Source: Sphyrna mokarran
Lineage: Eukaryota
Assembly: GCA_024679065.1 (NCBI GenBank)
Contig: JAGIQG010000004.1
Span: forward strand, 62,868,001-62,932,000
Direction of reading: 5' to 3'
Length of the DNA: 64,000 bases
Within the stretch, counting starts at the first letter, position 1; each line of letters begins with the position of its first letter. The translations under genes and the position numbers were made by a program. The notes beneath the pieces are model-generated. The model had not been told where the DNA came from. It made no database searches and worked only from the letters and a program-made list of their open reading frames with translations. This document shows positions 722 to 41,321 of this stretch, piece after piece.

Positions 722-3666
722 AACATAGAACAATACAGCACAAACAGGCCCTTCGGCCCACGAGTTGCACCGATCACATCTACCATTCCACAGACCTATC
801 TATAACCCCCTATCCTATTCTTTTCCATATACTCATCCAGAAATCTTTTAAAAGACTTCAGTGAGTTTGCCTCAACAACCTCCGACGGCAGTCGGTTCCA
901 TTCACTCACCACCCTCTGAGTGAAAAACTTATCCCTGACATCTCCTTTGTATTTGCTTCCCTGCACCTTAAATCTGTGTCCTCTCGTAGTGACCATTTCA
1001 GCTCGGGGAAATAGTCTCTGAGAGTCCACCCTATCTATTCCTCTCAACATTTTATAAACCTCTATCAGGTCGCCTCTCAACCTACGTCTCTCCAGTGAGA
1101 AGAGTCCCAGCTCCCTCAACCTATCTTCATAAGGCCTGCCTCCCAATCCAGGCAGCATCCTTGTAAATCTCCTCTGAACTCTCTCAATAGCCTCTACATC
1201 CTTCCTATAATGAGGCGACCAGAACTGCGCACAATACTCCAACTGGGGTCTGACAAGAGTCTTATAGAGCTGCATCATTACCGCCTGACTCCTAAACTCT
1301 ATCCCTCGATTAATGAAGGCCAGTACACCGTACGCCTTCTTGACCACTTTCTCCACCTGCGATTTAAGAGTCCTATGGACCCGGACCCCGAGATCTTTCT
1401 GCTCTATAACACAGCTAAGACTCCTACCCCTTATATTGTACTCCTTCATCCCATTATTCCTGCCAAAATGGACCACTACGCATTTATTCGCGTTGAAGTC
1501 CATCTGCCACTTCTCCGCCCAGTCTTGCATCCTGTCTATGTCCCACTGCAACTTTCAGCATCCCTCCAGACTATCCACAACAACACCGGCCTTTGTATCG
1601 TCGGTGAACTTACTAATCCATCCCTCCACTTCCTCATCCAGGTCATTTATGAAAATGACAAACAGCAGGGGTCCCAGAACAGATCCCTGGGGCACTCCAC
1701 CGGTTACCGACCTCCATGCAGAACAAGACCCATCCACAACCACTCTCTGCCTTCTGCCGTGAAGCCAGTTCTGGATCCACGAGGCCAAACCCCCTTGGAT
1801 CCCATGAACTCTCACCTTCTCCAGAAGCCTTGCATGTTGGACCTTATCAAACGCCTTACTAAAGTCCATGTACACTACGCCCACCGCCCTTCCTTCGTCA
1901 ATGTGTTCAGTCACATTTTTGAAGAACTCAGCTAAGCTCGTAAGGCATGATCTGCCCTTGACAAAACCATGCTGACAATTTCTAATCAGTCCAAACTTCT
2001 CCAAATGTTCATATATCTCATCCCTCAGAAGCCTCTCCATCAGCTTATCAACCACTGAAGTAAATTCCTGGACTATCCCAATTCCCTTTCTTAAAGATAG
2101 GAACCACATCCACAATCCTCCAGTCTTCCAGAACCTCTCCCGTTTCCATGGACGACGCAAAGATCATCGCCAGGGGCTCTACAACCACTTCGCTCACCTC
2201 CCACAATAACCTGGGGTACATCCCATCCGGTCCCAGCGACTTGTCTATCTTGATAGAATTTAACAGGTCTAACACATCCTCTTTCCTAACATCCACATAC
2301 TCAATCTTTTCCGTATGCCTCAAACCTGCAGTGCAATCTCCCAGTTCAGTTTCCACTGTGAATACCGAGGCAAAGTACTCGTTAAGCACCTCTGCCATTT
2401 CTTCCGGATTCACATGGAATTTTAGCCCTTCACCTTTTATAACCCCTATCCCTTCTCTTCTCATCCTTTTACTTTTCACATATTTGTAGAAGGCCTTGGG
2501 ATTTTCCTTAATCTTACCTGCCAAGGCCTTCTCATGACCTCTTCTGGCTCTCATAATTTCCTTTTTAGTTCCATTCTACACACCTTATACTCCTCTAGAT
2601 CCCTAAAATCCCCTAGCTCTCTGAACCTTTTATATACCTTTTTTTTCTTCCTAACTAGGTTCACCACTACCTTCGTGCACCACGGTTCCCAGGTCCTACC
2701 AGAACCTCCTTGACTCCTCGCAACGTTGTCTTGCAGTGCCCCAGACAAACATTCCTTGAAAAACCCCCACTTTCCTTCTGTACTCTTCCCCAAGAACACC
2801 TCCTTCCAGTTTATGCGTCCAATTACCTGCCTAATGTTTTCATATTTCCCCTTATTCCAGACGTACACCTTCCTAGCCTGCCTGATCCTATCTCTTTCCA
2901 TCGCTGTCGTGAAAATATAGAATTATGATCTCCATTCCCAAGATGCTCACCTACCGTGAGATCCGACACCTGCCCTGGCTCATTAGCAAGCATCAGGTCA
3001 AGTACAGCCTCTCTTCTCGTAGGCTTTTCCACGTACTGTGTCAGAAAACCTTCCTGAACACACCTAACAAACTCCACACCATCCACACCCCTTACCCTTG
3101 GGATATTCCAGTCGGTGTTTGTGAAATTGAAATCTCCCATCACGATAACCCTGTTATTTCTGCATCTGTCTAGGATCTGTTTCCCTATCTTCACCTCAAG
3201 TTCCCTGTCGCTATTGGGCGGCCTATAGAATACACCCAGCAAAGTTATCGACACTTTGCTGCTCCTAACTTCCACCCACAGAGACTCCACAGACATTCCC
3301 TCCCCATCTTCCACCTTCTCTACAGCCATGACACTGTCCCTGATCAACAGTGCCACACCACCTCCTCTTTGGCCCCAACCCTGTCCCTTCTGAAGCATCT
3401 GAATCCCAGCACCTGAAGTACCCAGTCCTGTCCCTGAGACAACCAAGTCTCTGTAATGGCCACCACATCACACTCCCAAGCAGCAATCCACGCCCTAAGC
3501 TCATCTACCTTATTTACTACACTCCTGGCATTAAAATAGACACACCTCAGCCCCTCAGTCAGGCCATTTCCCTTTTCCACCACCTGCCTAACCCCCCTCT
3601 CAGTGTGCCTGCAGTCCTTCCCTCCCTGGGAACTAACCTCCTTATTCACCGTCCCATCGATATTCC
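722..3666 (-). mobile_element. CR1 LINE family A, 5'-truncated, frameshifted ORF2 (APE endonuclease + RT)
   Basis: ORF pieces [52 protein letters not shown], ending IGGYR* at 796; CR1 3' UTR with (CATAGAA) tail on + strand. Confidence 0.97.
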
Positions 3667-4049
3667 CATCGATGTTTTAATTTACATTTTCCCTCGTAAT
3701 TTTGCTTTGCACTTTTCCAGTGCGATCACTTACTCTTTGTAATGAGCTGGCGAATAAGATACCTGGAGCTCTAAATTTGGAACACCCACTGCTTCATCAA
3801 TGGTACAATAACTTCCATTTTTTCTTCTGCACTAAACACAATTATTCCCCATGTCTCCTGAACAACTTGCTTCATTCCTTTAAGGGATTGTTGATATGCT
3901 ACCCAAGACCAAATATCCCTCAACACTTGTTGGACGTAGAAACAATACGTGTCCCCAAGCCTTGCTTGCCTTCACAATTTTCCCTTTGATTTGCAGAGCA
4001 AATCATGTTCCGGACAATTGATCTTTTTTTTCCTCCAGGGTTCTAGGGG

Positions 4050-7445: not shown

Positions 7446-7817
7446 AGTGCTTCACGTCGTTAGTGTACGCTTGACCTGGATCATTTGATGGGCAACATGA
7501 CAGCTCAGTGACTATCGCTGTGCTGTGCAGATACATGGATTTGGGCCTGTGTCTGTGGGAGTTTGCGTATTCTCCCCGTGCTTGCGTGGGTTTTCTCCGG
7601 GAGCTCCGGTTTCCTCCCACATCCCAAAGATGTGCTCTTAGGCTAATTGGCAAAACAAATTCTCCCTAAATTGTCTCAAATTTGGTTTTTAATCCATGGA
7701 TCTATAAACATGGACAGGGATCATGGGTGGGGGTGGGGGCGTCAGGGTGGCGGCGTGGACTCGTTGGGCCGGGGGGCCTGTTTCCCGTGCTGTTTTGTTC
7801 TTTGTTCTTCTTTGTTT
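7446..7817 (+). mobile_element. CR1-C 3' UTR fragment (SINE-containing end)
   Basis: Matches the 3' part of the copies at 16379 and 30092; (TTGTTCT) tail. Confidence 0.9.
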
Positions 7818-10649: not shown

Positions 10650-11304
10650 GTGGAGCACACCGGAGGGTGTCCTCCTTCATAATAAGTACTCCTGCTTGAG
10701 TACCACAGGGTGGGACAACTCGTCCGAGGGAGGCTGCAGTGGCCCGCTCTCTAAACCTGAGCCAGTACGCCAAAAAGCTAAGGAAGAGAGAGGCAAGGCG
10801 ATACGAATAGGGGACTCCACTGTGAGAGGTTCAGACAGGCATTTTTGTAGACGCAGGCGAGAGTCGCGGATGGTGGTTTGTCTTCCTGGAGCTGGGATCC
10901 GAGATGTTTCTGGACGCCTCCCAGACATCCTGAAAGCGGAGGGTGAGGAACCTGAAGTTGTGGTGCATATAGGTACTGCAGAAATAGGCAGGAAGAGGGA
11001 GGCAGTCATCAAAAGGGATTATAGGGAACTGGATAGGAAGCTGAGGAAAAGGAAAGCGAAGGTAGTAATTTCAGGATTGCTGCCTGCGCCTCGGGAGAAT
11101 GAGAGCAGGAATAAAATGAGGTGAAGGATGAATGCATGGCTGAGGGACTGGAGCAAGGGGCAGGGATTCAGGTTCATAGATCATTGGGACCTCTTTAGGG
11201 GCAGGTGTGACCTGTATAGAAAGGACGGGTGGCACTTGAACTCTTGTGAGACTAATATCTTGGCAAGTAGACTAGCTCGGGCTACTGGGGGATCTTTAAA
11301 CTAG
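10650..11304 (+). pseudogene. CR1-A ORF1 C-terminal part, SGNH/GDSL esterase-like domain (internal TGA at 11122)
   Basis: IGDSTVRG, VCLPGA, VHIGTAEIG, KDGWHLN, ending GSLN* (TAG 11302-11304). Confidence 0.9.
11295..11301 (+). other. Candidate -1 frameshift slippery heptamer T_TTA_AAC, CR1-A
   Basis: In ORF1 phase (TCT TTA AAC TAG); -1 frame TTT AAA CTA GAA AAG... runs without a stop into ORF2. Confidence 0.65.
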
Positions 11305-12042
11305 AAAAGCTGGGGGGTAGGAATATCGATGGGATGGTGAATAAGGAGGTTAGTCCCCAGGTAGGGAAGGACTGTAGGCCCTCTGAGAGGGGGGTTAGGC
11401 AGGTGGTGGAAAAGGGAAATATCCTGACTGAGGGGCTGAGGTGTGTCTATTTTAATGCCAGGAGTGTAGTAAATAAGGTAGATGAGCTTAGGGCGTGGAT
11501 TGCTGCTTGGGAGTGTGATGTGGTGGCCATTACAGAGACTTGGTTGTCTCAGGGACAGGACTGGGTACTTCAGGTGCCGGAATTCAGATGCTTCAGGAGG
11601 GACAGGGTTGGGGCAAAAGAGGAGGTGGTGTGGCACTGTTGATCAGGGACAGTGTCATGGCTGTAGAGAAGGTGGAAGACGGGGAGGGAATGTCTACAGA
11701 TCTCTGTGGGTGGAAGTTAGGAACAGCAAAGGGTCGATAACTTTGCTGGGTGTATTCTATAGGCCGCCCAATAGCGACAGGGAACTTGAGGTGCAGATAG
11801 GGAAACAGATCCTACTCAGATGTAAAAATAACAGGGTTGTCGTGATGGGAGATTTCAATTTCCCAAACATCGACTGGAATATCCCAAGGGTAAGGGGTGT
11901 GGATGGTGTGGAGTTTGTTAGGTGTGTTCAGGAAGGTTTTCTGATACAGTACGTGGAAAAGCCTACGAGAGGAGAGGCTGTACTTGACCTGATGCTTGCT
12001 AATGAGCCAGGGCAGGTGTCGGATCACACGGTAGGTGAGCAT

Positions 12043-12060
12043 AAACAAAGAACAAAGAAT
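12043..12060 (-). mobile_element. Tail-only insertion of the CR1-C microsatellite tail
   Basis: AAACAAAGAACAAAGAAT interrupts GAGCAT|CTTGGG, which is intact in copy 722-3666; AT duplicated. Confidence 0.7.
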
Positions 12061-12172
12061 ATCTTGGGAATGGAGATCATAATTCTATATTTTTCACAAT
12101 AGCGATGGAAAGAGATAGGATCAGGCCGGCTAGGAAGGTGTATGTCTGGAATAAGGGGAAATATGAAAACAT

Positions 12173-12489
12173 ATCCTGACTGAGGCTCAGTGACTATCGC
12201 TGTGCTGTACAGATAGATGGATTTGGGCCTGTGTCTGTGAGAGTTTGCGCATTCTGCCCGTGCTTGCGTGAGTTTTCTCCGGGTGCTCCAGTTTCCACCC
12301 ACATCCCAAAGGTGTGCTTTTAGGGTAATTGGCAAAACAAATTCTCCGTAAATTGTCTCAAATTTGTTTTTTAATCCATAGATCTATAAACATGGACAGG
12401 AATCGTGGGTAGAGGTGGGAACATCGGGGTGGCGGCGCGGGTGCGCTGGGCCGAAGGGCCTGTTTCACGTTCTGTTTTGTTCTTTGTTC
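12173..12489 (+). mobile_element. CR1-C 3' fragment nested in CR1-A
   Basis: V-SINE core plus tail inserted at GAAAACAT|TAGG. Confidence 0.92.
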
Positions 12490-13898
12490 ATTAGGCAGGT
12501 AATTGGATGTATAAACTGGAAGGAGGTGTTCTTGGGGAAGAGTACAGAAGGAAAGTGGTGGATTTTCAAGGAATGTTTGTCTGGGCCACTGCAACACAAC
12601 GTTGCGAGGAGTCAAGGAGGTTCTGGTAGGACGCGGGAACCGTGGTGCATGAAGGTAGTGGTGAACCTAGTTAGGAAGTAAAAAAAGGTATATAAAAGGT
12701 TCAGAGAGCTAGGGAATGTTAGGGATCAAGAGGAGTATAAGGTGTGTAGAAGGGAACTTAAAAAGAAAATTAGGAAAGCCAGAAGGGGTCATGAGAAGGC
12801 CTTGGCAGGTAAGATTAAGGAGAATCCCATGGCCTTCTACAAATATGTGAAAAGTAAAAGGATGAGAAGAGAGGGGATAGGGCCTATAAAAGGTGAAGGG
12901 GGAAAAGTCTGTGTGAATCCGGAAGAAATAGCAGAGGTGCTTAATGATTGCTTTGCCTCAGTATTCACAGCGGAAAGTGAACTGAGAGATTGCACTGCAG
13001 GTTTGAGGCATACGGAAAAGATTGAGTATGTGGATGTTAGGAAAGAGGATGTGTTAGACCTGTTAAATTCTATCAAGGTAGACAAGTCGCCGGGACCGGA
13101 TGGGATGTACCCCAGGTTATTATGGGAGGTGAGGGAAGTGGTTGCAGAGCCCCTGGCGATGATATTTGCATCATCCATGGAAACAGGAGAGGTTCCGGAG
13201 GATTAGAGAATTGTGGATGAGGTTGCTATCTTTAAGAAAGGGAACAGGGATAGTTCAGGAAATTACCGACCGGTGAGTTTGACTTCAGTGGTTGGTAAGC
13301 TGATGGAGAGGCTTCTGAGTGATAAGATATACGAACATTTGGAGAAGTTTGGACTGATTAGAAATAGTCAGCATGGTTTTGTCAAGGGCAGGTCATGCCT
13401 CACGAGCTTAGTTGAGTTCTTCGAAAATGTGACTGAACACATTGACGAAGGAAGGGCGGTGGACGTAGTGTACATGGACTTTAGCAAGGCTTTTGATAAG
13501 GTCCCCCATGCAAGACTTCTGAAGAAGGTGAGAGAGCATGGGATCCAAGGGGCTTTGGCCTCGTGGATCCAGAACTGGCTTCACGGCAGAAGGCTGAGAG
13601 TGGTTGTGGATGGATCTTGTTCTGCATGGAGGTCGGTAACTAGTGGAGTGCCCCAGGGATCTGTTCTGGGACCCCTGCTGTTTGTCATTTTCATAAATGA
13701 CCTGGATGAGAAAGTGGAGGGATGGATTAGTAAGTTCACCGACGATACAAAGGTCGGTGGTGTTGTGGATGGTCTGGAGGGATGCCAAAAGTTTCAGCGG
13801 GACATAGACAGGATGCAAGACTGGGTGGAGAAGTGGCAGATGGACTTCAACACGGATAAATGTGTAGTGGTCCATTTTGGCAGGAATAATGAGATGAA

Positions 13899-14189
13899 CA
13901 TAGAACATATACATAGAACATAGAACAATACAGCACAGAACAGGCCCTTCGGCCTTCGATGTTGTGCCGACCAAAATAAAAAGCAATGCCCCTCCTAACT
14001 AAACCATTCCCTTCTCATCCATATACTTATCAACTAACCTCTTAAACGCCACCAAACTTGGCGCATCTACAACAGCTGCAGGCAGGGCATTCCACTCCCT
14101 AATCACTCTTTGAGTAAAGAACCTACCTCTGATATCCGTCCTATAACTCATACTCCTTAATTTAAAGTTGTGTCCCCTCGTGCTAGCTT
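13899..14189 (-). mobile_element. CR1-D 3' fragment nested antisense in CR1-A
   Basis: Matches the 3' end of 43924-46070; a few target bases lost relative to copy 722-3666. Confidence 0.92.
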
Positions 14190-15959
14190 TACAATATAAG
14201 GGGTAGGAGTCTTAGCTGTGTTGTAGAGCAGAAGGATCTCGGGGTCCGAGTCCATAGGACTCTTAAATCGGCCTCGCAGGAGGAGGAAGTGGTCAAGAAG
14301 GAGTACGGTGTACTAACCTTCATTAACTGAGGAATAGAGTTTAGGAGTCAGGAGGTAATGATGCAGCTCTATAAGACTCTTGTCAGACCCCAGTTGGAGT
14401 ATTGTGCGCAGTTCTGGTCGCCTCATTATAGGAAGGATGTAGAGGCTATTGAGAGAGTGCAGAGGAGATTTACAAGGATGCTGCCTGGATTGGGAGGCAG
14501 GCCTTATGAAGATAGGTTGAGGGAGCTGGGACTCTTCTCACTGGAGAGACGTAGGTTGAGAGGCGACCTGATAGAGGTTTATAAAATGTTGAGAGGAATA
14601 GATAGGGTGGACTCTCAGAGACTATTTCCCCGAGCTGAAATGGTCACTACGAGAGGACACAGATTTAAGGTGCAGGGAAGCAAATACAAAGGAGATGTCA
14701 GGGGTAGGTTTTTCACTCAGAGGGTGGTGAGTGAATGGAACCGACTGCCGTCGGAGGTTGTTGAGGCAAACTCACTGGGGTCTTTTAAGAGACTTCTGGA
14801 TGAGTATATGGAAAAGAATAGGATAGGGGGTTATAGATAGGTTTGTGGATTGGTAGATGTGATCGGCGCAACTCGTGGGCCAAAGGGCCTGTTTGTGCTG
14901 TATTGTTCTATGTTCTATATAAGACTTACGATGTTCAGGAAACACAGATATATCTTGGAACCAGGAGCAATTATAAATATGTGTGTATGATAATTAATAT
15001 ATGGAATTTTTTTACGCTGCTCAGTTCTAGTCGTGTATATGTTTTCTTTCGTTTAGTGATTATTATCTGGTGATTGCCACACGATGACTCAGTTGGTTAT
15101 TCTCAACGGGCTTTCATATGGCTCCTCACACCCTTCTAAAAATCAAACCATGAATCACCACAGACACATGATTCAAATTTGTATAAACTTGTGGCTACCT
15201 TTACGCAGCACCAATATCTGAAAGCATTGTAATACCTCAGGGACAAGCAAGATGTACACAATTGTAAACCCAGCAAACGACTAATGGGAATTCTCACTAA
15301 ACATGTATTGATTATATCAATAGATCTCACGCCATTTTTACACAGAGATCTAATTTTCCATCCATCCGGCCTGCCACTCAATAGGATAGGCCAATCATGC
15401 TCCAAGAGAACCCCGCCCCCCACCACACCCCCCACAAAAAGCCTGTTAGACCAATGTGAAAACAACAATCTGTGAGCTGCTATATATAATATGCCTCGTT
15501 TTCATATCTTCCTGCGTCGATGTACGGGCTGTTCAAGACAAATAATGTTTGCTGATACCTTGTCTTACGCATGACAGGCTCTACACAACATGAATTGATC
15601 AAATGGTTGGGTGAGTTCTTCAACCAGTTTTGAGCAGGCTTTTTTTTCATTTGATGTTGCTGGGCCATTCATTAAAGTGCCGCTCAGAGAACTCATACGC
15701 ACTTGCACTGCAGTGATAAGATCATACGAAATTTGACCCATGTACCTGTCGAGTCTGCTGCACCATTCAATGAAAAGGTGATTAATCGGATACGATAATC
15801 CTTAAATTAATTTTCCCACTTTAGCCCAATAATCCTTTATTCCCTTACCAATTGGAAATATGCCCACCTAGCCTTGAGCATGCTTAACCCGTCGACCTCT
15901 GCAGTCCTCTGCAGTAAAGAATTCCGTGGAATTCTCTTCATCCCCTTGTAAAATGGTTA

Positions 15960-16378: not shown

Positions 16379-17119
16379 ACGAGGGGTCACGGGCTTAGGG
16401 TTAGGGGGGTAAGGTATAGTTTGGATGCTAGAGGGAGTGTTTTTTGCACAGAGGGTGGTGGGGGTATGGAATGCGCTGCCAAGTAAAGTGGTGGAGGCAG
16501 GTACTCTGGAGTTATTTAAGAAATACTTAAATGGGCACATGGACAGAATGGGAATGGAGGGGTATAGAAAACTGATTTAAAATAGGGATCATGAGCCTTC
16601 GGAGTCCCTGGGAAGTGTGTAAATAGATGATGATATTGATGTACTTGTTTTTATCCTACAGGTGCTTTGGTCCACCTTGTTGTCTAACGAGGGGCATACA
16701 CGCGATGGGTCGTGAGAGGGCTGCTCTTGGATTTTTTTCGAGAGTATCCTAGTGCTTCACGTCGTTAGTGTACGCTTGACCTGGACCATTTGATGGGCAA
16801 CACGACAGCTCAGTGACTATCGCTGTGCTGTGCAGATACATGGATTTGGGCCTGTGTCTGTGGGAGTTTGCGCATTCTCCCCGTGCTTGCGTGAGTTTTC
16901 TCCGGGCGCTCCGGTTTCCTCCCACATCCCAAAGATATGCTCTTAGGCTAATTGGCAAAACAAAATCCCCCTAAATTGTCTCAAATTTGTTTTTTAATCC
17001 ATAGGTCTATAAACATGGACAGGGATCACAGGTAGAGGTGGAAACAGCGGGGTGGCGGCACGGGATCGTTGGGCCGAAGGGCCTGTTCCCCGTCCTGTTT
17101 TGTTCTCTATTCTTTGTTC
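16379..17119 (+). mobile_element. CR1-C: ORF2 C-terminus, ~214 nt spacer, embedded SINE-derived 3' end
   Basis: RGHGLRVRG..GYRKLI* (TAA 16578-16580); SINE head begins at 16795. Confidence 0.93.
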
Positions 17120-23061: not shown

Positions 23062-23390
23062 ACCATTTGATGGGCAACACGACAGCTCAGTGACTATCGC
23101 TGTGCAGTGCAGATACATGGATTTGGGCCTGTGTCTGTGGGAGTTTGCGCATTCTCCCCGTGCTTGCGTGGGTTTTCTCCGGGTGCTCCGGTTTCCTCCC
23201 ACATCCCAAAGATGTGCTCTTAGGCTAATTGGCAAAACAAATTCTCCCTAAATTGTCTCAAATTTGGTTTTTAATCCATAGATCTATAAACATGGACAGT
23301 GATCGCGGGTAGAGGTGGGAACATCGGGGTGGCGGCGCGGGCTCGTTGGGCCGAAGGGCTTGTTTCCCGTGCTGTTTTGTTCTTTGTTCT
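23062..23390 (+). mobile_element. CR1-C 3' fragment
   Basis: Starts in the spacer (ACCATTTGAT) just upstream of the SINE head. Confidence 0.92.
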
Positions 23391-24620
23391 ATTAGTATAA
23401 TTATTTCTAGGAGTTTTAACATAACCAGAGTCATGTTTCATAATCCATGATGTTATCAATATCCACCCATAAGGATTCGACTTTCCTCTGATCCGTTTCC
23501 TTTTCTGGACGTCATCCTCTAATATCAGCTCTGAGTTCCATAAAGTTCCTTTTCTTCATGTTTCCAAAACTGGAACTTTTTTTATCCCTAATCTTAGTTA
23601 TCTATCTGGAATTTATAACTCTATTCATTTTCAATTCGCCTGTCTTGTAATTGCTCCGATTTCTGGAAAAAGCCGACGCAAATGTATTCATCGGGGTATA
23701 AACAAAAAGAAATGCTGGGAAAATCTCTGGCCACACATATAGAGCTAGGAACAGAATTAATCTTTCGAGTCCCTATTACATTTCGCCAATGCAAAAGAGA
23801 TTTATTTATGTCTGTTTTTTTTTCCACAGAAGGCAGATTCAATATTGCAACGTTACCTTACAGATATCTCTGTCTTCGTGCCACACTCCGTCTTTATCAA
23901 AATCGCTATAAAACCCTACTGACCATTTTTTTCTCCTTGTGTCCAGTACCCGAACAGGCTTGTATGATTCATCAGTACACAAGACGTCAACCCGTTTTAA
24001 ACGCAGCTCATTGCAACAGACTAACCCCATCCTTGTCCAGCTTTCGTCAAAATTTTCATGAATCGAGGGTCATTCATACCTCCAAATGTCTTTCACGCAG
24101 GCATTTTTTTATCTCTTTAACCCGTTGTTAGGTGTCGGTGGACTGAGGTATCAACGTCAAGAAAATGTCTCAGATAAAGAAGCTAATTGGATTCAGTTGG
24201 CTTAGTTCCTTTAATTTCAAAGACTGTTAAATATTGCAACTTAACGGCATTTCGTAATAATCAGAATAATTAATGAATAATGCAGATTTTGAAGGAAAGA
24301 ATTCTGTAATTCGTATCTCTCATCGATTAAAGATAATTATAAAATTAGGATGCTTAACTTCGTTCTTTTGATCCAAAATCTAGCATTTCTATACAACCTG
24401 CTGAAAGAGACGTTCCAGATCATCATCCCAATAGTAAAAATCTGCGAGTTTTGATTCCTGGTCCCTAAGTATGACTTAAAAAGTAATATGTTTAATTAAT
24501 ATTAATAGGTTGCAGGATGTCAACATTGCTTGTTAGACCAACATGCATTGTCCATTAATTAGAATGGAAAATGTGTTTTTTAGCCGCATTCTGAAAGTGT
24601 CCGTTGTGTCGGTACACCAC

Positions 24621-30091: not shown

Positions 30092-31315
30092 AAGAATGTA
30101 GTGGGGAGGTATATGATAAAGGGTAGACCTATTAAGAGTATAGAAACGCAGAGGGACCTGGGGGTGCAGGTGAACAAGTCTCTGAAGGCGGCAGAGCAAG
30201 TGAAGAAGGTTGTGAAGAAAGCATATAGTATGCTAGCCTTTATAGGAAGGGGTATAGAGTACAAGAGCTGGCCTTTAATGTTGCAGTTGTATAAAACGCT
30301 GGTTAGACCTCATTTGGAATACTGCGTCCAATTCTGGTCGCCTTACTAGCGGAAGGACGTGGAGACTCTGGAGAGAGTGCAGAAGAGGTTTACCAGGATG
30401 CTGCCTGGTATGGAAGGTCAGAGTTACGAGGAAAGGTTAGGCAAATTGGGGCTGTTTTCCTTAGACAAACGTAGACTTAGAGGAGATGTAATAGAGGTGT
30501 ACAAGATTATGAGGGGTCTAGATAGAGTAAACAGGTTTAAACTTTTTCCTAGGATGGACTCAAATAGCACGAAGGGACACAGGCTTAGGGCGTGGGGAGG
30601 GGGGGTGGTAGGGTAAGGTATAATTTGGATGCCAGAGCGAGTTTTTTTTCATACAGAGGGTGGTGGCAGTATGGAATGCGCTTCCAAGTAGAGTGGTGAA
30701 GGCAGGCACTCTGGAGTTATTTAAGAGACACTTAGATGATGGGCACATGAACAGAATGGGAATAGAGGGTTACAGAAGACTGATTTAAAATAGGGATCAT
30801 GACCCTTGGGAGTCTCTGGGTGATGTGTAAATAGACGATGATATTGACGTACTTGTTTTTATCCTACAGATGATTTCGTCCGCCTTGTTGTCTAACAAGG
30901 GTTATTCACGCGATGGGTCATGAGAGGGCTGCTCTTGGATTTTTCAAGAGTATCCTAGTGCTTCACGTCGTTAGTGCACGCTTGACCTGGATCATTTGAT
31001 GGGCAACACGACAGTTCAGTGACTATCGCTGTGCTGTGCAGATACATGGATTTGGCCCTGTGCCTGTGGGAGTTTGCGCATTCTCTCCGTGCTTGCGTCG
31101 GTTTTCTCCGAGGTGTTCCAGTTTCCTTCCACATCCCAAAGATGTGCTCTTACGCTAATTGGCAAAACAAATTCTCCCTAATTTGTCTCAAATTTGGTTT
31201 TGAATCCATAGATCTATAAACATAGACAGGGATCACGGGTTGAGGTGGGAACATCGGGGTTTTGGCGCGGGCTCATTGGGCCGAAGGGCCTGTTTCCCGT
31301 GTTGTTTTTGTTCTT
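30092..31315 (+). mobile_element. CR1-C, 5'-truncated
   Basis: QRDLGVQV..LYKTLVRPHLEYCVQFWSP ORF2 end followed by spacer and SINE-derived 3' end. Confidence 0.95.
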
Positions 31316-31317
31316 CG

Positions 31318-31866
31318 TACGCATCAGATGACAAGACAAAGTACCAGACACTGAAGTTCTCTGTACAGCAAGTCTACCATCATCCACACACTGCTGATGA
31401 GAATGCAGACCCGGTGGCAAAGCATGTCATCCATATGCTAAACCAGCGCAGTCGAAGCCGCTCATTTTTGGGGAACTCTCTGCTGGAATACGCTCACATG
31501 GGGGGCGGGAGGAGGCGGTGGCAGAAGAAATGTTACAAAGCCACGTTCAAGGCCTCTCTGAAGTCACTTGACATGGATACGACTACCTGGGAAATGCTGG
31601 CACAAAACCGCCCTGCCTGGTGCTGCCTCATCCACGAGGGCTATCAAGCTTACAAAGCAAGGTGCATTGCTAAAGAACAAGTTAACCGCCAGCTGTGCAA
31701 GCCCTGAGCCACCAGCACAACAACTCCAATGCCTACACAAGTCTGTCCATTATGCGCCAGGACATTACATGTCCGAATTGGCCTCATCAGTCATCTTTGG
31801 ACATGTCAGCCTCAAAATGACTGATTGTGTTGTGGTCCTCATCCATGACGATGGACGAATGACAAC
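31318..31866 (+). mobile_element. RTE-clade LINE 3' fragment
   Basis: QDKVPDTEVL, QKKCYKATFKASLKS..TWEMLAQNRPAW, CPLCARTLHVRIGLISHL zinc finger, GACGATGGACGAA 3' end. Confidence 0.85.
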
Positions 31867-31876
31867 CATTGACAAC

Positions 31877-33463
31877 ATAGAACATAGAACATAGAACATT
31901 ACAGCACAGAACAGGCCCTTCGGCCTTCGATGTTGCGCCGACCAAGATAAAAAGCAATGCCCCTCCAAACTAAACCATTCCCTTCTCTTCCATATACTTA
32001 TCAACTAACCTCTTAAACGCCACCAAACTTGGCGCATCTACAACTGCTGCAGGCAGGGCATTCCACTCCCGAACCACCCTTTGGGTAAAGAACCTACCTC
32101 TGATATCCGTCCTATAACTATCACCCCTTAATTTAAAGCTGTGTCCCCTCGTGCTAGCTTTTTCCATCCTAGGAAAAAGGCTATCACTGTCCACCCTATC
32201 TAAACCTCTAATCATCTTATATGTTTCGATCAGGTCCCCTCTTAGCTTCCTTCTTTCTAACGAAAACAACCTCAAATCCCTCAGCCTCTCCTCATAAGAC
32301 CTGCCCTCCATACCAGGCAACATCCTGGTAAACATCCTCTGTACCCTCTCCAAAGCCTCCACATCTTTCTTATAATGCGGGGACCAGAACTGCACACAAT
32401 ACTCCAAGTGCGGCCGCACTAGAGTTTTGTACAGTTGCAACATGACGTTGCGGCTCCGAAATTCAATCCCTCTACCAATAAAAGCCAAGACTCCATATGC
32501 CTTCCTAACAACCTTCTCGACCTGACTGCCTACTTTCAGGGATCTATGCACATACACACCAAGATCCCTCTGTTCATCTAGACTACTAAGAATCCTACCA
32601 TTTGCCCTATACTCTACACATTTATTATTTCTGCCATAGTGCATTACCTCACACTTTTCCACATTAAACTCCATTTGCCACCTCTCGGCCCAGCTCTGCA
32701 ACTTGTCTAAGTCCCTCAGCAAACTATAACACCCCTCTTCACTATCTACCACTCCACCGACTTTAGTGTCATTTGCAAATTTACTAATCCATCCTTCAAT
32801 ACCCTCATCCAGATCATTTATAAAAATTACAAACAGCAGGGGCCCCAAAACAGACCCCTGAGGTACACCACTTGTCACCGAACTCCAAGATGAATATCTC
32901 CCATCAACCACCACCCTCTGTCTTCTATCTGCTAGCCAATTCCTAACACAATTAGCTAAATCACCCTCTATCCCATACATCTGAATTTTCTGCAGAAGTC
33001 TTCCATGGGCCACCTTATCAAACGCCTTACTAAAGTCCATATCTACCACATCAACCACCTTACCCCCATCCACCTCCTTAGTCACTTTTTCAAAAAACTC
33101 AATGAGGTTAGTAAGGCACGACCTACCCTTCACAAAACCATGCTGACTATTTCCAATCAATTCATTACTCTCTAAATAAGTATAAATCCTATCCCTAATT
33201 ATTCTCTCCAATACTTTGCCCACCACAGAAGTAAGACTCACTGGCTATAATTCCCTGGAAGGTCTCTCTTCCCCTTCTTGAACAACGGGACCACATTCGC
33301 TATCCTCCAGTCCTCCGGAACCACACCCGTAACCAACGATGACCTGAAGATCAGAGCCAGAGGCTCTGCAATCTCCTCTCTTGCCTCCCAGAGAATCCTA
33401 GGGTAAATCCCGTCCGGCCCAGGGGACTTATCCAACTTCAAACCCTCATCCAACTTCAAACCC
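31877..33463 (-). mobile_element. CR1-D 3' segment (RT to tail) of a 5'-inverted insertion
   Basis: 423-aa RT ORF; tail (CATAGAA)n at 31877. Confidence 0.96.
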
Positions 33464-33464
33464 A

Positions 33465-34838
33465 TGTTTGAACTCGTGGCTACGGGGATGGTGCAGGAGG
33501 GAGGGGTTCAGGTTCCTGAACAATTGGGACTCATTCTGGGATAGGTAGGACCTCTACAAGAGAGATGGTCTACACCTGAACCAGAGGGGAACTAATATCT
33601 TGGGGGGAAAATTTGCTAAGGCTATGCAGGGGGCTTTAAACTGATTCGGGGGGGGGGTGGGATCCTGAATAGTTGGGGTGCTAAGAGGGATGAGAGTAAG
33701 GGGGTCCTGGAGGAAAGCCGTAAAACACAGCAGCATACGGGTGGGGTAGGGCATGGTTTGAAATGCGTATACTTTAATGCAAGGAGTATTCGCAATAAGG
33801 GGGAGGAACTTGAAGCTTGGACCAGTACCTGGAACTTCGATGTTGTGGCCATTTCAGAGACTTGGGTAGAGCAGGGACAAGAATGGATGTTGCAGGTTCT
33901 AGGGTTCAAATGCTTTAGTCGGAGTAGAGAAGGAGGTAGAAGGGGGGGAGGAGTGGCATTATTAGTCAAAGACTGTATCACAGTGACAGAGAAGAAGTTT
34001 GATGAGGACTTGTCTGTTGAGGTAGTATGGGCTGAGATTAGAAACAGGAAAGGAGAGGTCACCCTGTTGGGAGTCTTTTATAGACCTCCTAAAAGTTCTA
34101 GAGAGGTAGAGGAAAGGATTGCAAAGTCAATTCTGGTCAGGAGTGAAAGTAATAGGGTAATTGTTATGGGGGACTTTAACTTTACTAATATTGATTGGAA
34201 TAGCTATAGCTCTAGCTCGTTAGAGGGGTCAGTTTTCGTACAAAGTGTGCAGGAGGGTTTTTTGACTCAGTATGTAGATAGGCCAACTAGAGGTGAGGCT
34301 ACATTGGATTTGGTGCTGGGCAATGAGCCAGACCAGGTGTTAGGCTTGGAGGTTGGTGAACATTTTGGTGATAGTGACCACAATTCGGTTACGTTCACCT
34401 TAGTGATGGATAGGGATAGGCATGAAGCTGGGGGCAGTAGTTATAGCTGGGGGAAGGGTAATTATGAGGCCATCAGGAGAGAATTAGGGTGCATAGATTG
34501 GACTAGGAAGCTACAGGGACTGGGAACATCTGGAATGTGGAGCTTATTCAAGGAGCAGCTGCTGCGGGTCCTTGATAAGTATGTCCCTGTCAGGCAAGGA
34601 GGAAATGGTCGTGTAAGAGAACCTTGGTGTACGAAAAAAGTTGATTTGCTGGTTAAAAGGAAAAAGGAGGCTTATGTCAGGATGAGGATTGAAGGCTCGG
34701 TTAGTGCAATGGATAGCTATAGATTAGCGAGGAGGGAGCTAAAGGGGGAATTGAGGAGAGCAAAGAGAGGACATGAGAAGACTACGGCTGATAGGATTAG
34801 GGAGAATCCTAAAGCTTTCTTTAGATATGTTAAGAATA
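33465..34838 (+). mobile_element. CR1-D inverted 5' segment (ORF1 end + APE domain)
   Basis: LNSWLRGWCRREGFRFL..DGLHLN..GALN*, then intact CVYFNARS..SDHNSV..FFRYVKN. Confidence 0.95.
33635..33641 (+). other. Candidate -1 frameshift slippery heptamer T_TTA_AAC, CR1-D
   Basis: GCT TTA AAC TGA; -1 frame open for 41 codons to TTG 33758 with no ATG. Confidence 0.65.
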
Positions 34839-36820
34839 ATACACTGGATGACATATTTCATCAAATTGATGATAGAACATAGAACATAGAACACTACAGC
34901 ACAAACAGGCCCTTCGGCCCATAAGTTGTGCCAAACACATCAAAACCTACCCAGCCATAGACCTATCTATAACCCCCAATCCCATTGGATCCCATATACT
35001 CATCCTGAAGTCTTTTAAAAGACCCCAGCGAGTTCACCTCGACCACCACCGACAGCAGCCGATTCCATTCACTCACCACCCTCTGAGTGAAAAACTTTCC
35101 CCTAGCGTCCCCTCTGTACTTGCTTCCCTGCACCTTAAATCTGTGCCCTCTCGTCATGACCATTTCAGCCCTGGGAAATAGTTTCTGAGAGTCCACCCTA
35201 TCTAATCCTCTCAACATCTTGTAAACCTCTATCAGGTCGTCTCTCAACCTTCGTCTCTCCAGGGAGAACAGTCCCAGCTCCCTCAACCTGTCTTCATAAG
35301 GCATGCCTCCCAATCCAGGCAACATCCTTGTAAATCTCCTCTGCACCCTTTCAATAGCTTCCATGTCCTTCCTATAGTGAGGCGACCAGAACTGCGCACA
35401 GTACTCCAAGTGTGGTCTGACAAGGGTCCTATAAAGCTGCAGCATTACTTCCTGACTCCTGAAATCAATCCCTCGATGAATGAAGGCCAGTACACCGTAA
35501 GCTTTCTTAACCACATCCTCCACCTGGGAGGCCGATTTGAGAGTCTTATGGACCCGGACCCCAAGATCCCTCTGCTCTTCCACACAGCTAAGACTCCTAC
35601 CTTTGATAGTGTACTCATTCATCCCGTTGGATCTGCCAAAATGGACCACAACACATTTATCCACGTTGAAGTCCATCTGCCACTTCTCCGCCCAGTCTTG
35701 CATCCTGTCGATGTCCTGCTGCAACTTTTGACATCCCTCCAGACCACCCGCAACACCACCGACCTTCGTGTCATCGGCGAACTTACTCACCCATCCCTCC
35801 ACTTCCTCATCCAGGTCATTTATGAAAATGACAAATAGCAAGGGCCCCAGAACAGATCCCTGGGGCACCCACTGGTGACTGACCTCCATGCAGAAAAAGA
35901 GCCATCCACAACCACCCTCTGCCTTCTGCATGCAAGCCAGTTCTGGATCCACAAGGCCAAAGCCACTTGGATCTCATGCCCTCTCACCTTCTCAAGAAGT
36001 CTTGCATGCGGGACCTTGTCAAATGCCTTGCTGAAGTCCATGTACACCACATCCACTGCTCTTCCTTCGTCAATGTGTTCAGTCACATTTTCGAAGAACT
36101 CAATTAAGCTCGTAAGGCATGACCTGCCTTTTACAAAACCATGCTGACTATTTCTAATCAACCTAAACTTCTCCAAATGCTCATAAATCTTGTCCCTCAG
36201 AAGCCTCTCCAACAGCTTACCAACCACTGAGGTCAGACTCACTGGTCGGTAATTTCCAGGACTATCCCTGTTCCCTTTCTTGAAAATAGGGACCACATCC
36301 GCAATCCTCCAATCCTCCAGAACCTCTCCCGTCTCCATCAACGACGCAAAGATCATCGCCAGGGGCTCTGCAATGACATCCCTCACCTCCCACAATAACC
36401 TGGGGTACATCCCATCTGGTCCCGGAGACTTGTCTATCTTGATAGCATTTAAAAGTTCTAACACATCCGCTTCCTTAATATCTACATACTCAATCTTTTC
36501 AGTCTGCCGCAAACTTGTAGTGCATCCTCCCAGATCACTTTCCACTGTGAATACTGAGGCAAAGTACTCATTAAGCACTTCTGCCATTTCTTCCGGATCC
36601 ATACAGACTTTTCTCCCTTCACCTTTTATAGGTCCTATCCCTTCTCTTCTCATCCTTTTACTTTTCAGATATTTGTAGAAGGCCTTGGGATTCTCCTTAA
36701 TCCTACCAGCCAAGGCCTTCTCATGACCCCTTCTGGCTCTCCTAATTTCCTTTTTAAGCTCTCTTCTATAAGCCTTATACTTCTCTAGATCCCCAACATC
36801 TCCTAGCTCTTTGAACCTTT

Positions 36821-37535
36821 TAGAACATAGAACATAGAACATAGAACATTACAGCACAGAACAGGCCCTTCGGCCTTCGATGTTGTGCCGACCAAAATAA
36901 AAAGCAATGCCCCTCCAAACTAAACCATTCCTTCTCTTCCATATACTTATCAATTAACCTCTTAAACGCCACCAAACTTGGCGCATCTACAACAGCTGCA
37001 GGCAGGGCATTCCACTCCCTAATCACTCTTTGAGTAAAGAAACTACCTCTGATATCCGTCCTATAACTCATACCCCTTAATTTAAAGCTGTGTCCCCTCG
37101 TGCTAGCTTTCTCCATCCTAGGAAAAAGGCTATCACTGTCCACCCTATCTAAACCTCTAATCATCTTATATGCTTCAATAAGATCCCCTCTTAGCCGCCT
37201 CCTTTCTAACGAAAACAACCTCAAATCCTTCAACCTCTCTTCATAGGACCTGCCCTCCATACCAGGCAACATCCTGGTAAACCTCCTCTGTACCCTCTCC
37301 AATGCCTCCACATCTTTCTTATAATGTGGGGACCAGAACTGCACACAATACTCCAAGTGCGGCCGCACTAGAGTTTTGTACAGTTGCAACATGATGCTGT
37401 GGCTCCTAAATTCAATCCCCCTGCCAATAAAAGCTAAGACTCCATATGCCTTCTTAACAACTTTATCCACTTGACTTTCAGGGATCTATTGACACATACA
37501 CCAAGATCCTTCTGTTCCTCAACACTATTAAGAGC
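36821..37535 (-). mobile_element. CR1-D 3' fragment nested in CR1-B
   Basis: TTTTA duplicated at 36818-36822 and 37538-37542. Confidence 0.93.
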
Positions 37536-37910
37536 TATTTTATACACTTTTCTTTTCTTCCTGACTAGGTTCACCACAGCCTTCGTGCACCACAGTTCCC
37601 TCGACCTAGCAAAACCTCCTTGTCTCACCGGAAGGTTGTCGTGCAGAGCTCCAGACAAGCATTCCTTGAATATCTGCCACCTTCCTTCTGTGCTTTTCCC
37701 CAAGAACACCTCCTTCCAGTTTATTCGCCCCAACATCTGCCTGGTGTCTTCATATTTCCCCTTATTCCAGACAAACACCTTCCGAGCCTGCCTGATCCTA
37801 TCCTTTTCCAATGCAAGGGTGAAGGAGATAGAATTATGATCTCCAAGATGCTCTCCTACCGAGAGATCCATCACCTGTCCTGGTTCATTAGCTAGTACCA
37901 GGTCCAGTAC

Positions 37911-38145
37911 TATAGGACGGATATCAGAGGCAGGTTCTTTACCCAAAGGGTGGTTCGGGAGTGGAATGTCCTGCCTGCAGCGGTTGTAGATGCGCCAAGT
38001 TTGGTGGCGTTTAAGAGGTTAGTTGATAAGTATACGGAAGAGAAGGGAATGGTTTAGTTTGGAGGGGCATTGCTTTTTATATTGGTCGGCGCAACATCGA
38101 AGGCCGAAGGGCCTGTTCTGTGCTGTAATGTTCTATGTTCTATGT
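37911..38145 (+). mobile_element. CR1-D 3' fragment nested antisense in CR1-B
   Basis: AGTAC duplicated at 37906-37910 and 38146-38150. Confidence 0.93.
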
Positions 38146-38832
38146 AGTACAGCCTCTCCTCTCTAGGCTTGTCCACGTGCTGTGTCAGGAAACCCTCCTG
38201 AACACACCTAACAAACTCCTCCCCATCCAAATCCCTTACCCTTGGGATATTCCAGTCGATGTTTGGGAAATTGAAGTCTCCCATCACAACAACTCTGTTA
38301 TTTCTACATCTCTCCAGTATCTGTTTCCCTATCTGCACCTCAACTTCCCTGTCACTATTGGGCGGCCTATAGCATACACCCAGCAACGTCACCGACCCTT
38401 TGCTATTCCTAACTTCCACCCACAGAGACTCCGTAGACATTCCCTCCTCGGTATCCACCTTCTCAACAGCCACGACACTGTCCCTGATCAACAGTGCCAT
38501 TCCACCACCTCTTTTTCCTCCCTCCCTGTCCTTCCTGAAGGATCTGAATCCCGGGACCTGTAGTACTCAGTCCTGTCCCCGAGACATCCAAGTCTCTGTA
38601 ATGGCCACCACATCACAATCCCAAGCAGCAATCCACGCCCTAAGTTCATCCACCTTATTTACTACACTCCTGGCATTAAAATAGACACACCTCAGCCCCT
38701 CAGACTGGACATTTCCCTTCTCCCCCACTCGTCTAACCTGTCTCTCATCCTGCCTAGAGTTCTTCCCTACCTGGGAGCTAACGTCCTTGCTCCCAGTCTC
38801 CACATCACTATTCCCTCCCCCTAATCTTTCTA

Positions 38833-38839
38833 GTTTAAA
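38833..38839 (-). other. Candidate -1 frameshift slippery heptamer T_TTA_AAC, CR1-B
   Basis: ACT TTA AAC TAG; -1 frame FKLERLGGGNSDVETGSKD... open into CVYFNARS with no ATG. Confidence 0.65.
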
Positions 38840-38972
38840 GTCCCCCTAGTAGCCCTAGCCAATCTTCCCGCCAAGATATTAGTTCCCCTGGGATTCAGGT
38901 GCCACCCGTCTTTGCCGTACAGGTCACACCTGCCCCTAAAGAGGCCCCAATAAATGATAATTGAGAGTACCT

Positions 38973-39506: not shown

Positions 39507-41093
39507 GAAGAGAACAGTGACCACCATACCACACAACCCTGCCACAGAAACGTCTGCAAGATGTGCCAGATCATCGACAGGGATGCCATCATCTCACATG
39601 AGAAACCATCCAGCGGGATTTGTTTCACAAACAGGGCATATATAGATACGAATTCAGTTACAAGATAATGGTTGGAATGCAAGCCTAAATGATAATCAAG
39701 CCTTTATACAGGCGCAGAGAATTTGAGTGGAGAGAAGGTTAAACACAGGTTAAACGCATGTGAATCGTCTCCAGCCAGGACAGTTAGTGGGATTCTGTAA
39801 ACCCAGGCACGTCATGGGGTTACAGATTGTGTGGCATAAAGCCAAGATCCCTTTTGAGGCTGTACTCATGTGTGTGGAAGTTGGCTATCAGTCTCCGCAC
39901 AGGGACTCTGTGCTGCCATGTGTCGTGAAGGTCTGCTTGGAGAACACTTACCTGAAAATCAGAAGCGGAATCCCCGTGACCGTTGAACTGTTCGTCAACA
40001 GGAAGAGAACAATCTTGCCTGGTGATTGTTGAGTGGTGCTCATTCATCCGTTGTATAGCATCTGCATGGTCTCCCCAATGTACTATGCCTCCAGACATCC
40101 TTTCCTGCAGTGTATCAGGTAGGCACAGTCGGCAGAGTTGCAAAAGTACAAAGAACAAAGAATAGAGAACAAAACAGCACGGGAAACAGGCCCTTCAGCC
40201 CAACGAGCCCGCGCCGCCACCCCGATGTTCCCAAATCTATCCGTGATCCCTGTCCATGTTTATAGATCTACGGATTAAAATCCAAATTTGAGACAATTTA
40301 GGGAGAATTTGTTTTGCCAATTAGCCTAAGAGCACATTTTTGGGATGTGGGAGGAAACCGGAGCACATGGAGAAAACACATGCAAGCATGGGGAGAATGC
40401 GCAAACTCCCACAGACATGGGCTCAAATCCATGTATCTGCACAGCACAGCGATAGTCACTGAGCTGTAGTGTTGCCCATCAAATGGTCCAGGTCAAGCGT
40501 TCACTAACGACGTGAAGCACTAGGATACTCTTGAAAAAAAAGCCAAGAGCAGCCCTCTCACGACCCATCGCGTGTATGCCCCTCTTTAGACAACAAGGTG
40601 GATCAAGGCACCTGTAGGATAAAAACAAGCACATCAATATCATCATCTATTTACACAATTCCCAGGGACTCACAAGGCTCATGATCTCCCATTTTAAATC
40701 AGTTTTCTATACCCCTCCATTCCCATTGTGTTCATGTGCTCATCTAATTATCTCTTAAATAACTCCGGAGTGCCTGCCTCCACCACTTTACTTGGCAGCG
40801 CATTCCATACCTCCGCCACCCTCTGTGTGAAAAAACTCCCTCTAGCATCCAAATTATACTTTACCCACCTCACCCTAAGCCCGTGACCCTTTGTGCTATT
40901 CTAGTCCATCCTAGGAAAGAGGTTAACCCTGTTTACTCCATCTATACCCCTCATACCATGCAAATACATACAGTATGTACAGTACGTACCGTGCAACAGG
41001 TTGATGATGTTCTGACATGAGATGATGGCACATGTGTCGATGATCTGACATGCCTTGCAGAGGTTGCTTTGGCAGGATTATGTGGTGTTGGGA
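39507..41093 (-). mobile_element. Penelope-like element (GIY-YIG region + partial pLTR), split by a CR1-C insertion, with an inverted piece at 39507-39606
   Basis: QRMNEHHSTITRQDCSLPVDEQFNGHGDSASDFQVSVLQ; TQPCHRNVCKMCQIID appears in both orientations. Confidence 0.8.
40150..40955 (-). mobile_element. CR1-C nested in Penelope element
   Basis: ORF2 end + spacer + SINE-derived end; AGTAC at 40145 and 40981 as possible TSD. Confidence 0.93.
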
Positions 41094-41321
41094 AAAAAAG
41101 CAGCCGGCTTGATTGATGTCCCATCCACAAACAACCATCAACCATTTACACTGGCAGCAATGTGCGCCATCTATAAGATGCACTGGAGGAACTTAGCAAA
41201 GATCTTTCAGCGCCACCATCTAAATCCAAGTCCACAATAATTAAGAAGAAAAAACTTAGCAGCTACCTGGGAACACCACCTGGATGTCCCCCTCCAAGTC
41301 AATCAACATAATCTTGGAAAT

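Follow-up and report, generated by a model that had tools for sequence, protein, structure and literature searches.

Three decayed copies of a CR1 long interspersed nuclear element (LINE) in the genome of Sphyrna mokarran carry the same slippery heptamer, T_TTA_AAC, where their first open reading frame (ORF1) meets their second (ORF2). The copies, CR1-A, CR1-B and CR1-D, lie in a 64,000-nucleotide stretch (assembly GCA_024679065.1, contig JAGIQG010000004.1, positions 62,868,001 to 62,932,000 of the forward strand; hereafter the window), which is rich in such copies; in these three the ORF1/ORF2 junction is kept. At all three junctions the heptamer stands in X_XXY_YYZ phase with the esterase frame of ORF1 and directly adjoins its stop codon. 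Sequence comparison indicates that the junction heptamer is a real, deeply conserved feature of otherwise ordinary CR1s. Programmed −1 ribosomal frameshifting, yielding a gag-pol-like fusion of the ORF1 esterase with the APE domain of ORF2 and its reverse transcriptase (RT) domain, is its probable function.

The translation of LINE ORF2 is a long-standing open question, and the cases studied use reinitiation (PMC3894237 and PMC3708506; here and throughout, papers are cited for the portions of their text that were accessible). In most vertebrates, the CR1 group supplies the dominant retrotransposons (PMC13343379). If the frameshift reading is true, any CR1 ORF2 annotation beginning at a Met of the linker or of APE is in error, and the enzyme is active as a fusion that carries a membrane-binding esterase, which would give substance to the Gag analogy of the esterase ORF1 protein (PMC3905857). 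CR1 would also provide an ancient, high-copy animal case in which −1 recoding has an unusual stimulator; a 2016 review described natural frameshifting stimulated by a G-quadruplex as "not currently known but anticipated" (PMC5009743).

An in-phase heptamer precedes the ORF1 stop in three CR1 copies

In CR1-A, the heptamer occupies positions 11295 to 11301 (+) and is followed by TAG at 11302 to 11304. The CR1-D heptamer (33635 to 33641, +) is followed by TGA at 33642 to 33644, and that of CR1-B (38833 to 38839, −) by TAG at 38832 to 38830. The codon preceding TTA is TCT in A, GCT in D and ACT in B, so that the first T is a synonymous third position of three amino acids (Ser, Ala and Thr). From the heptamer, the −1 frame runs without a stop into the APE motif CVYFNARS for 49 (A), 43 (D) and 50 (B) codons, and it is also open upstream of the heptamer for 8, 5 and 2 codons, respectively. 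Neither B nor D has an in-frame ATG before CVYFNARS. The three heptamers and their phase, the synonymous first T, the stop-free −1 frame into CVYFNARS and the lack of an in-frame ATG in B and D had been noted in an initial annotation of the window, and each was borne out.

Two other statements in that annotation required correction. It had spoken of three CR1 families; CR1-A and CR1-B are 86.5% identical over 808 nt, and CR1-D is about 64% identical to both within APE. A and B are therefore subfamilies of one lineage, and the window holds two lineages, not three. It had also predicted a transframe peptide reading Leu-Lys-Leu, which would need a shift one codon earlier; with a slip of two tRNAs, the residues expected across the site are Leu-Asn-Leu.

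No AUG overlaps the ORF1 stop in the ORF2 frame at any of the three junctions. CR1-A does have an in-frame ATG in the linker (11334), which is ACG in a 93.6% identical sibling copy (2834 to 3666) and ACT in B, and is probably a copy-specific change. Because A's ATG is replaced in its relatives, a conserved start ahead of the APE motif is missing from every lineage in the window.

The copies themselves are all decayed or truncated. The ORF1 remnant of CR1-A (10654 to 11304, +) is 5′-truncated, has an internal TGA at 11122, ends Leu-Asn-stop and corresponds to residues 92 to 309 of a full-length relative at 66% identity (tblastn). Its −1 frame (11295 to 11618, +) comprises the 49-codon linker and the start of APE up to the first frame break, and the remaining ORF2 with APE, RT and the 3′ end (11630 to 14918, +) is marked by indels and two nested insertions (about 12185 to 12494 and 13901 to 14190). 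CR1-D retains the last 58 esterase codons (33468 to 33644, +) and 415 open codons in the −1 frame across the whole of APE (33635 to 34879, +; Pfam Exo_endo_phos, E = 9.6e-20). CR1-B retains the last 40 ORF1 codons (38830 to 38952, −); its ORF2 (34873 to 38839, −) is open in the −1 frame to a TGA within APE, the remainder being split by two nested CR1 fragments. An APE-RT relative used as a tblastn query spans both A and B.

The named relatives of the window ORF1 are from rays (Mobula and Leucoraja, 66 to 70% identity; 14 relatives in all). Its GDS, GT and DxxH blocks, aligned with 12 relatives, are those of an SGNH esterase; the Pfam matches OSK and Lipase_GDSL_2 are both below cut-off, and a relative matches the esterase of PDB entry 4C1B. 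From these ORF1 relatives, and from by-eye similarity to CR1-labelled rows of PMC13343379, the copies are assigned to the esterase-type CR1 LINEs.

The heptamer recurs at vertebrate CR1 junctions

The initial annotation had suggested comparing heptamer and phase across vertebrate CR1 consensuses, and had named a variable first T in family consensuses as evidence that would tell against frameshifting. We used the family consensuses of PMC13343379 (Supplementary Table 2), of which the first 400 nt were visible. The junctions of full-length families (about 4 kb) fall outside this visible part and the row-by-row reading covered 2/58 of the supplement; both facts, including what the remainder may hold, bear on every count that follows. 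TTAAAC followed by a stop codon was found at 31 places. Eighteen are ORF1/ORF2 junctions, and the first T is present in 18/18. Eight places without this T lie at 5′ ends or in L2, Rex1, Crack and unclassified rows, and none is a junction. The 18 junctions span 12 species codes, which we take to stand for sharks, rays, chimaera, coelacanth, bowfin, teleost, bullfrog, crocodilians and lizard. Over all junctions, the first T closes codons for at least seven amino acids: Ala, Gly, Ser (TCT in the window and AGT in a row from a stingray), Thr, Tyr, Asp and Cys.

Further samplings were blind to the heptamer. Esterase-motif anchors returned five rows, four with a junction, and the full word stood in 4/4; 44 consecutive rows (34 CR1) held six junctions, five with the full word and one starting inside it; and G-tract anchors gave 23 places, among them 10 CR1 junction rows (nine full, one partial). 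When the overlapping sets were combined, the full heptamer was present in 20/21 distinct junction rows from 12 species, with phase judged by eye, and no row contradicted it. The stop was not intact in the consensus in two of the 21. No further junctions came from other sources: the four matches in the visible part of the PMC4316615 supplement were ORF2 3′-end alignments only, that of PMC3708506 contained only RT protein alignments, a scan of genome contigs for relatives returned 16 bacterial GDSL-type loci (23 to 29% identity) and no CR1, and tblastn of plasmids gave no match.

The constancy of the first T bears on a slip of one tRNA only, in which slow termination would leave the stop codon in the A site while peptidyl-tRNA-Asn moved from AAC to AAA, making the same fusion protein by another mechanism. 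The stop does adjoin the heptamer in all three copies of the window and in those 18 consensus junctions that were retrieved together with it, and no conserved 3′ structure was found, both of which suit such a slip. However, slippage on AAC needs no first T, yet T is present in 18/18 rows and at four-fold sites, and one ORF1 clade has its Lys-Asn pair about 10 codons before the stop. We consider a one-tRNA slip very unlikely.

The heptamer is conserved beyond the needs of the protein

TTTAAAC occurs 13 times in the window (both strands); 4/13 precede a stop codon, and three of those four are the junctions. Codon usage was taken from the 3,462 codons of the window's CR1 ORF2 stretches, in which TTA accounts for 41/306 Leu codons (13%), AAC for 28/115 Asn codons (24%) and T for 29% of four-fold sites, giving a joint P of about 0.009 per independent lineage for TTA, AAC and the first T together. 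Between B and D, 12/37 four-fold sites in APE are identical, which is near random, yet all seven heptamer bases are common to the two. The argument from saturation rests on this APE count and not on the short ORF1 tail, where 7/9 four-fold sites agree and the region is more conserved in general. Minority codons thus appear to have been kept across saturated lineages, and the heptamer to be conserved beyond protein-coding needs.

Protein sequences extend the comparison to 163 ORF1 relatives (the 14 above plus the best 150 of 4,661, with one in common), among which named sources include snake, swallow, monitor lizard, turtle, sturgeon, eel and sea cucumber. C termini were counted in the 96 that end 20 to 45 residues after the last esterase motif; in the other 67/163 this motif is absent by pattern or the protein runs past it, and some of these also end Leu-Asn (LN). 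A count free of the pattern gives 62 LN and 9 Gly-Asn (GN) ends among the 163. The C-terminal residue is Asn in 68/96 intact ends and nearly invariantly so in the vertebrate clade. Because a heptamer ending in AAC needs an XXA codon, Leu (UUA), Gly (GGA), Lys (AAA) or Pro (CCA) should precede this Asn. Leu does so in 52 cases, Gly in nine and Lys in one (62/68); Leu, Gly, Lys and Pro together precede just 20% of 1,002 internal Asn residues. For the six remaining residues (S, E, I and F), a single base change separates the codon from TTA or GGA. All nine Gly-Asn ends are Gln-Gly-Asn, compatible with G_GGA_AAC. Before Leu-Asn, a residue whose codon cannot end in T was found in 2/62 proteins (one of them not a true ORF1 end), compared with 20/62 and 17/62 at neighboring positions. 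Anywhere from 24 to 39 residues follow the esterase motif, yet the tail still ends LN or GN, so the LN/GN end is not a fixed position of the fold.

These data also weigh on a constraint acting on protein or base composition, under which ORF1p would require its C-terminal Leu-Asn, ORF2 would be made otherwise, and the codons would be inherited or reflect base bias. The near invariance of the terminal Asn in the vertebrate clade would be expected from this, and the shared ancestry of all the elements means that rows are not independent. Against it stand the minority status of TTA and AAC, the saturation of synonymous sites between B and D, the unlikeness of Leu, Gly and Lys as residues, and the variable tail length. 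As an explanation, such a constraint is highly improbable.

Some ORF1 relatives end differently. P0080, P0095 and P0119 form a clade ending Phe-Phe-x, and P0115, P0157, P0168, P0169 and P0171 have a Lys-Asn pair some 10 codons ahead of the stop. These clades could use other slip words, a U-run or A_AAA_AAC.

Two reading frames of a distant lineage imply T_TTA_AAY

Two ORF2 relatives that are 36% identical to D, P0019 and P0020, read F-K-L about 30 residues before the APE motif. Upstream, their −1 frame is codon-compatible at 27/30 and 26/30 positions with ORF1s ending Y-L-N-stop (median of 8 over the 163 proteins). F-K-L over L-N-stop in two frames forces T_TTA_AAY in the DNA, and a lineage outside the vertebrate clade therefore appears to carry this word. 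F-K-L is also found in the ORF2 frame of a painted-turtle protein, P0069. We analyzed 120 of the 231 ORF2 relatives of the distant lineage, which as one lineage are not independent. Twenty-one span the site (16 F-K-L, 4 L-K-L and 1 F-I-L), and in 0/21 does a Met stand anywhere from the site to the APE motif. Among ORF2 relatives that start within the linker, 51/54 have no Met inside, and the residue at which they begin is aligned to a Val or Leu of longer copies; these starts are probably GTG or TTG calls made by the gene finder.

The same residues bear on termination-reinitiation as in SART1 and L1, in which ribosomes would stop at the end of ORF1 and restart at an AUG or near-cognate codon that overlaps the stop or lies close by, and the word and G-rich tract would serve that step. 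UAAUG, with its AUG in the ORF2 frame over the stop, is present in 3/18 consensus junctions and is the motif that couples the SART1 ORFs (PMC3708506). Moreover, true Met residues occur in the linker of a shark-type ORF2 relative, P0016, initiation of L1 ORF2 reportedly can dispense with its AUG (PMC5009743), and the stop always adjoins the word. In contrast, the corresponding codon is GUG, GUU or AUU in close homologues of a UAAUG family, a start is lacking there in most families, the ATG of CR1-A is not kept in its relatives, and linker Met is missing from all 21 spanning ORF2 relatives. Reinitiation would also leave unexplained both the exact in-phase X_XXY_YYZ word and its apparent switch to GGA_AAC and AAA_AAC. 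On balance we consider it unlikely.

Several relatives bear on joining at the RNA level, either by splicing, with the word as branch point and the AG of TAG as acceptor, or by polymerase slippage on the T3-A3 run. P0186, P0202 and P0288 are fused in frame exactly at the site (Y-L-K-L, equivalent to one extra A) and P0293 is fused in the T run; the word plus TAG also resembles a branch point plus acceptor. But P0247 and P0292 are fused elsewhere, which is what sequencing errors or ordinary copy-specific indels would produce, and we read the exact-site fusions as copy-specific indels too. The stop is TAA or TGA in 7/18 consensus junctions and in copy D, which therefore have no acceptor AG, and splicing was rejected for this reason; polymerase slippage was rejected because runs of three are far below known slip sites (runs of nine; PMC5009743). 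RNA-level joining is thus exceedingly improbable. Nor did we count the three exact fusions as evidence of function, each being a single-member cluster.

A different type of fusion was seen in P0262, P0278 and P0284, in which the esterase passes into the −1 frame some 35 codons ahead of the heptamer, with the reading frame then continuing into APE. P0284 stands for 17 member sequences and may represent an in-frame fused variant that has spread or one locus that was sampled repeatedly.

A G-rich tract is the only conserved feature 3′ of the heptamer

The initial annotation had reported a G-run beginning 6 to 10 nt downstream of each heptamer. A G-rich tract is indeed present in all three copies, at spacings of 10 nt in A (11312 to 11321, +), 6 nt in D (33648 to 33661, +; G10-T-G3) and 11 nt in B (38813 to 38821, −; G5-A-G3). 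In the published consensuses, a run of at least four G's, judged by eye, follows soon after the stop in 14/18 junctions. The tract is a candidate stimulator, or it may simply encode Gly-Gly in the linker. Its Gly codons are mostly GGG in consensus rows judged by eye, compared with 30% GGG among Gly codons in ORF2, and this excess hints at a nucleotide-level role. A G-quadruplex was predicted in the tract of D and not in A or B (ViennaRNA, G-quadruplex option). As a side observation, the tract often ends in UGGGA (window 33659 to 33662 and consensus rows), which lies 3′ of the stop. UGGGA is the 18S-pairing motif of calicivirus reinitiation, where it lies 5′ of the stop.

Stems fared less well. 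The complementary words listed in the initial annotation exist, but they begin at distances of 8 (A), 36 (B) and 2 (D) nt downstream of the heptamer and are not homologous. Only that of A (11310 to 11360, +; arms 11310 to 11315 and 11355 to 11360) has the usual spacing, with an 8-nt spacer, and neither D nor the corresponding place in B conserves it. The three stems were accordingly ruled out as a shared stimulator. Folding z-scores ranged from −3.1 to +1.0 over 36 segments (12 per copy of A, B and D), and no Rfam family matched anywhere in the window. As the sole conserved 3′ feature, the G-rich tract is the best candidate for a stimulator, whether as a weak G-quadruplex, as a protein-bound element or together with variable stems.

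A model for CR1 ORF2 expression

Taken together, the vertebrate consensuses, the distant lineage, the switching among Leu-Asn, Gly-Asn and Lys-Asn and the lack of a conserved AUG support programmed −1 frameshifting as first proposed in the initial annotation. From these sequences we infer the slippage, the fusion protein and its ratio as follows. Ribosomes would translate ORF1 through its zinc finger, coiled coil and SGNH esterase to the final codons, UUA and AAC, where most would reach the adjoining stop and release ORF1p. A minority would slip by −1 on U_UUA_AAC, tRNA-Leu re-pairing with UUU and tRNA-Asn with AAA, and would then read a Gly-rich linker of 40 to 50 residues, followed by APE and RT. 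The outcome would be an ORF1p-ORF2p fusion made at a low fixed ratio, like retroviral gag-pol. The conserved G-rich tract 6 to 11 nt downstream would act as the stimulator, possibly aided by the adjoining stop.

Several observations weigh against this reading. Junction context and phase in the consensus rows were judged by eye and the rows contain indels; the search for TTAAAC plus stop itself fixes six of the seven heptamer letters. The UAAUG junctions and the linker Met residues of P0016 noted above count on the same side, as does P0231, which reads V-K-L at the site and falls outside the counted pattern. The Gly-Asn and Lys-Asn variants are known from protein sequence only, and Gly-Asn comes from essentially one clade. 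Moreover, 28/96 intact ORF1 relatives end in a residue other than Asn, including the whole L2-type clade. When phylogeny was taken into account (a quick IQ-TREE tree of 95 of the 163 proteins), the protein test of the first heptamer position showed one incompatible state in about 22 changes (P = 0.05 to 0.17), so that the protein-level signal at this position is suggestive but not significant. Finally, no stem, hairpin or pseudoknot shared among A, B and D was found, and the G-run is missing in 4/18 consensus junctions.

A much broader reading can be framed, to which we give only tentative credence: that from invertebrate lineages to birds, esterase-type CR1 elements have relied for more than 500 million years on −1 frameshifting, switching among U_UUA_AAC, G_GGA_AAC and A_AAA_AAC, with a G-rich tract (perhaps a natural G-quadruplex or an element bound by protein) as stimulator in place of a pseudoknot, and making RT solely as an ORF1p-ORF2p fusion. 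If that were true, the polymerase would be co-assembled into the ribonucleoprotein through the ORF1p coiled coil and lipid-binding esterase, as in Gag-Pol.

Other features of the window

A sibling of CR1-A (722 to 3666, −) is 5′-truncated just 3′ of the G-run; it thus lacks the heptamer, and it has ACG where A has ATG. A 10-nt duplication lies at its truncation join (3650 to 3670, −). Two published consensuses likewise start at or within the heptamer, and stalling of reverse transcription at this element may be the cause of 5′ truncations there.

CR1-D as a whole (31877 to 34879) consists of a plus-strand piece (33468 to 34846, from the end of ORF1 to ORF2 residue 372) that adjoins a minus-strand piece (33441 to 31973, residues 442 to 931). 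Both are 92 to 93% identical to parts of a single element at 43923 to 46070. CR1-D therefore looks like a 5′-inverted insertion with the layout of twin priming, a process known from L1.

A repeat of 300 to 460 nt is present in at least eight copies that are 88 to 96% identical (7446 to 7809, 12185 to 12494, 16660 to 17113, 23062 to 23393, 30868 to 31318, 40159 to 40613, 41321 to 41778 and 48211 to 48522). One copy is nested in CR1-A, none has an Rfam match, and some extend into a LINE 3′ end, as a short interspersed nuclear element or a short LINE tail would. Exon-sized ORFs at 48936 to 49301 and 50003 to 50389 (+) match the immunoglobulin V-set and C1-set domains (E = 3.8e-10 and 9.4e-11) and appear to belong to a host immunoglobulin-superfamily gene of V-C1 layout. 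A degenerate, long CA/TG microsatellite (54014 to 54955) gives rise to spurious open frames on both strands. Among the ORF2 relatives, two carry bacterial annotations: P0018, a CR1 ORF2 with 57% identity to D, comes from a 3-kb contig of a Carnobacterium assembly, and P0268 from a gammaproteobacterial metagenome-assembled genome. Both are probably host DNA contamination.

Comparison with known systems

The window copies belong with the esterase-type CR1 LINEs, which have the same SGNH esterase ORF1 and APE-RT ORF2 and have been described as "Canonical-CR1" (PMC13343379), with an ORF1 of type IVB (PMC4120745). The accessible portions of this literature describe the two ORFs and are silent on the route of ORF2 translation. 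The main text of the 2026 CR1 survey has 0 occurrences of "slip," of "translat," of "overlap" and of "start codon" (PMC13343379), and no proposal of CR1 frameshifting was present in the accessible portions of PMC2734521, PMC4255032, PMC3905857, PMC7140322, PMC4120745 and PMC11835228. No such proposal was found in the full-text literature, a scope outside which fall the 1997 chicken and turtle papers, Kapitonov and Jurka 2003 and the Repbase and Dfam notes, and an earlier mention is possible. [quoted passage not shown] The recoding review discusses HeT-A, TART and L1, and "CR1" was not found in the portion examined (PMC5009743).

A functional parallel is the coronavirus ORF1a/1b junction, at which heptamer and phase are identical and the long −1 ORF encodes the polymerase, as in CR1. 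U_UUA_AAC is named as the frameshift site of infectious bronchitis virus and, with G_GGA_AAC and A_AAA_AAC, is among the most shift-prone heptamers for mammalian ribosomes (PMC5009743). Viral −1 signals also share with CR1 ORF1 the logic of a structural or RNA-packaging protein encoded upstream. CR1 is unlike the viral sites in that its stop adjoins the heptamer, the overlap in the window copies extends only 2 to 8 codons upstream, the host is a non-LTR element and no stem is common to A, B and D from which a conserved H-type pseudoknot of the coronavirus type could form. The CR1 signal thus appears to work like the coronavirus element without being a member of that group.

Among non-LTR elements, −1 frameshifting has an earlier proposal in Dictyostelium TRE5-A and TRE3-A, for which a review states that a −1 frameshift is required for ORF2 (PMC5911963); they differ from CR1 in clade and host and have no esterase ORF1. 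SART1 and L1 resemble CR1 in their bicistronic LINE RNA and low ORF2 output, and the UAAUG of a few CR1 consensus junctions is a further likeness. Unlike the route proposed here, they make a separate ORF2p, and SART1 needs an overlapping AUG (PMC3708506), which is missing at most CR1 junctions. Finally, the L2-type esterase of ZfL2-1 (PDB 4C1B; PMC3905857) is homologous to the CR1 esterase, scoring 86 bits against a close relative of the window's ORF1. The seven-member clade nearest ZfL2-1 (P0097, 194 bits) has no terminal Asn. The signal therefore appears to go with CR1-type junctions and not with the esterase as such.

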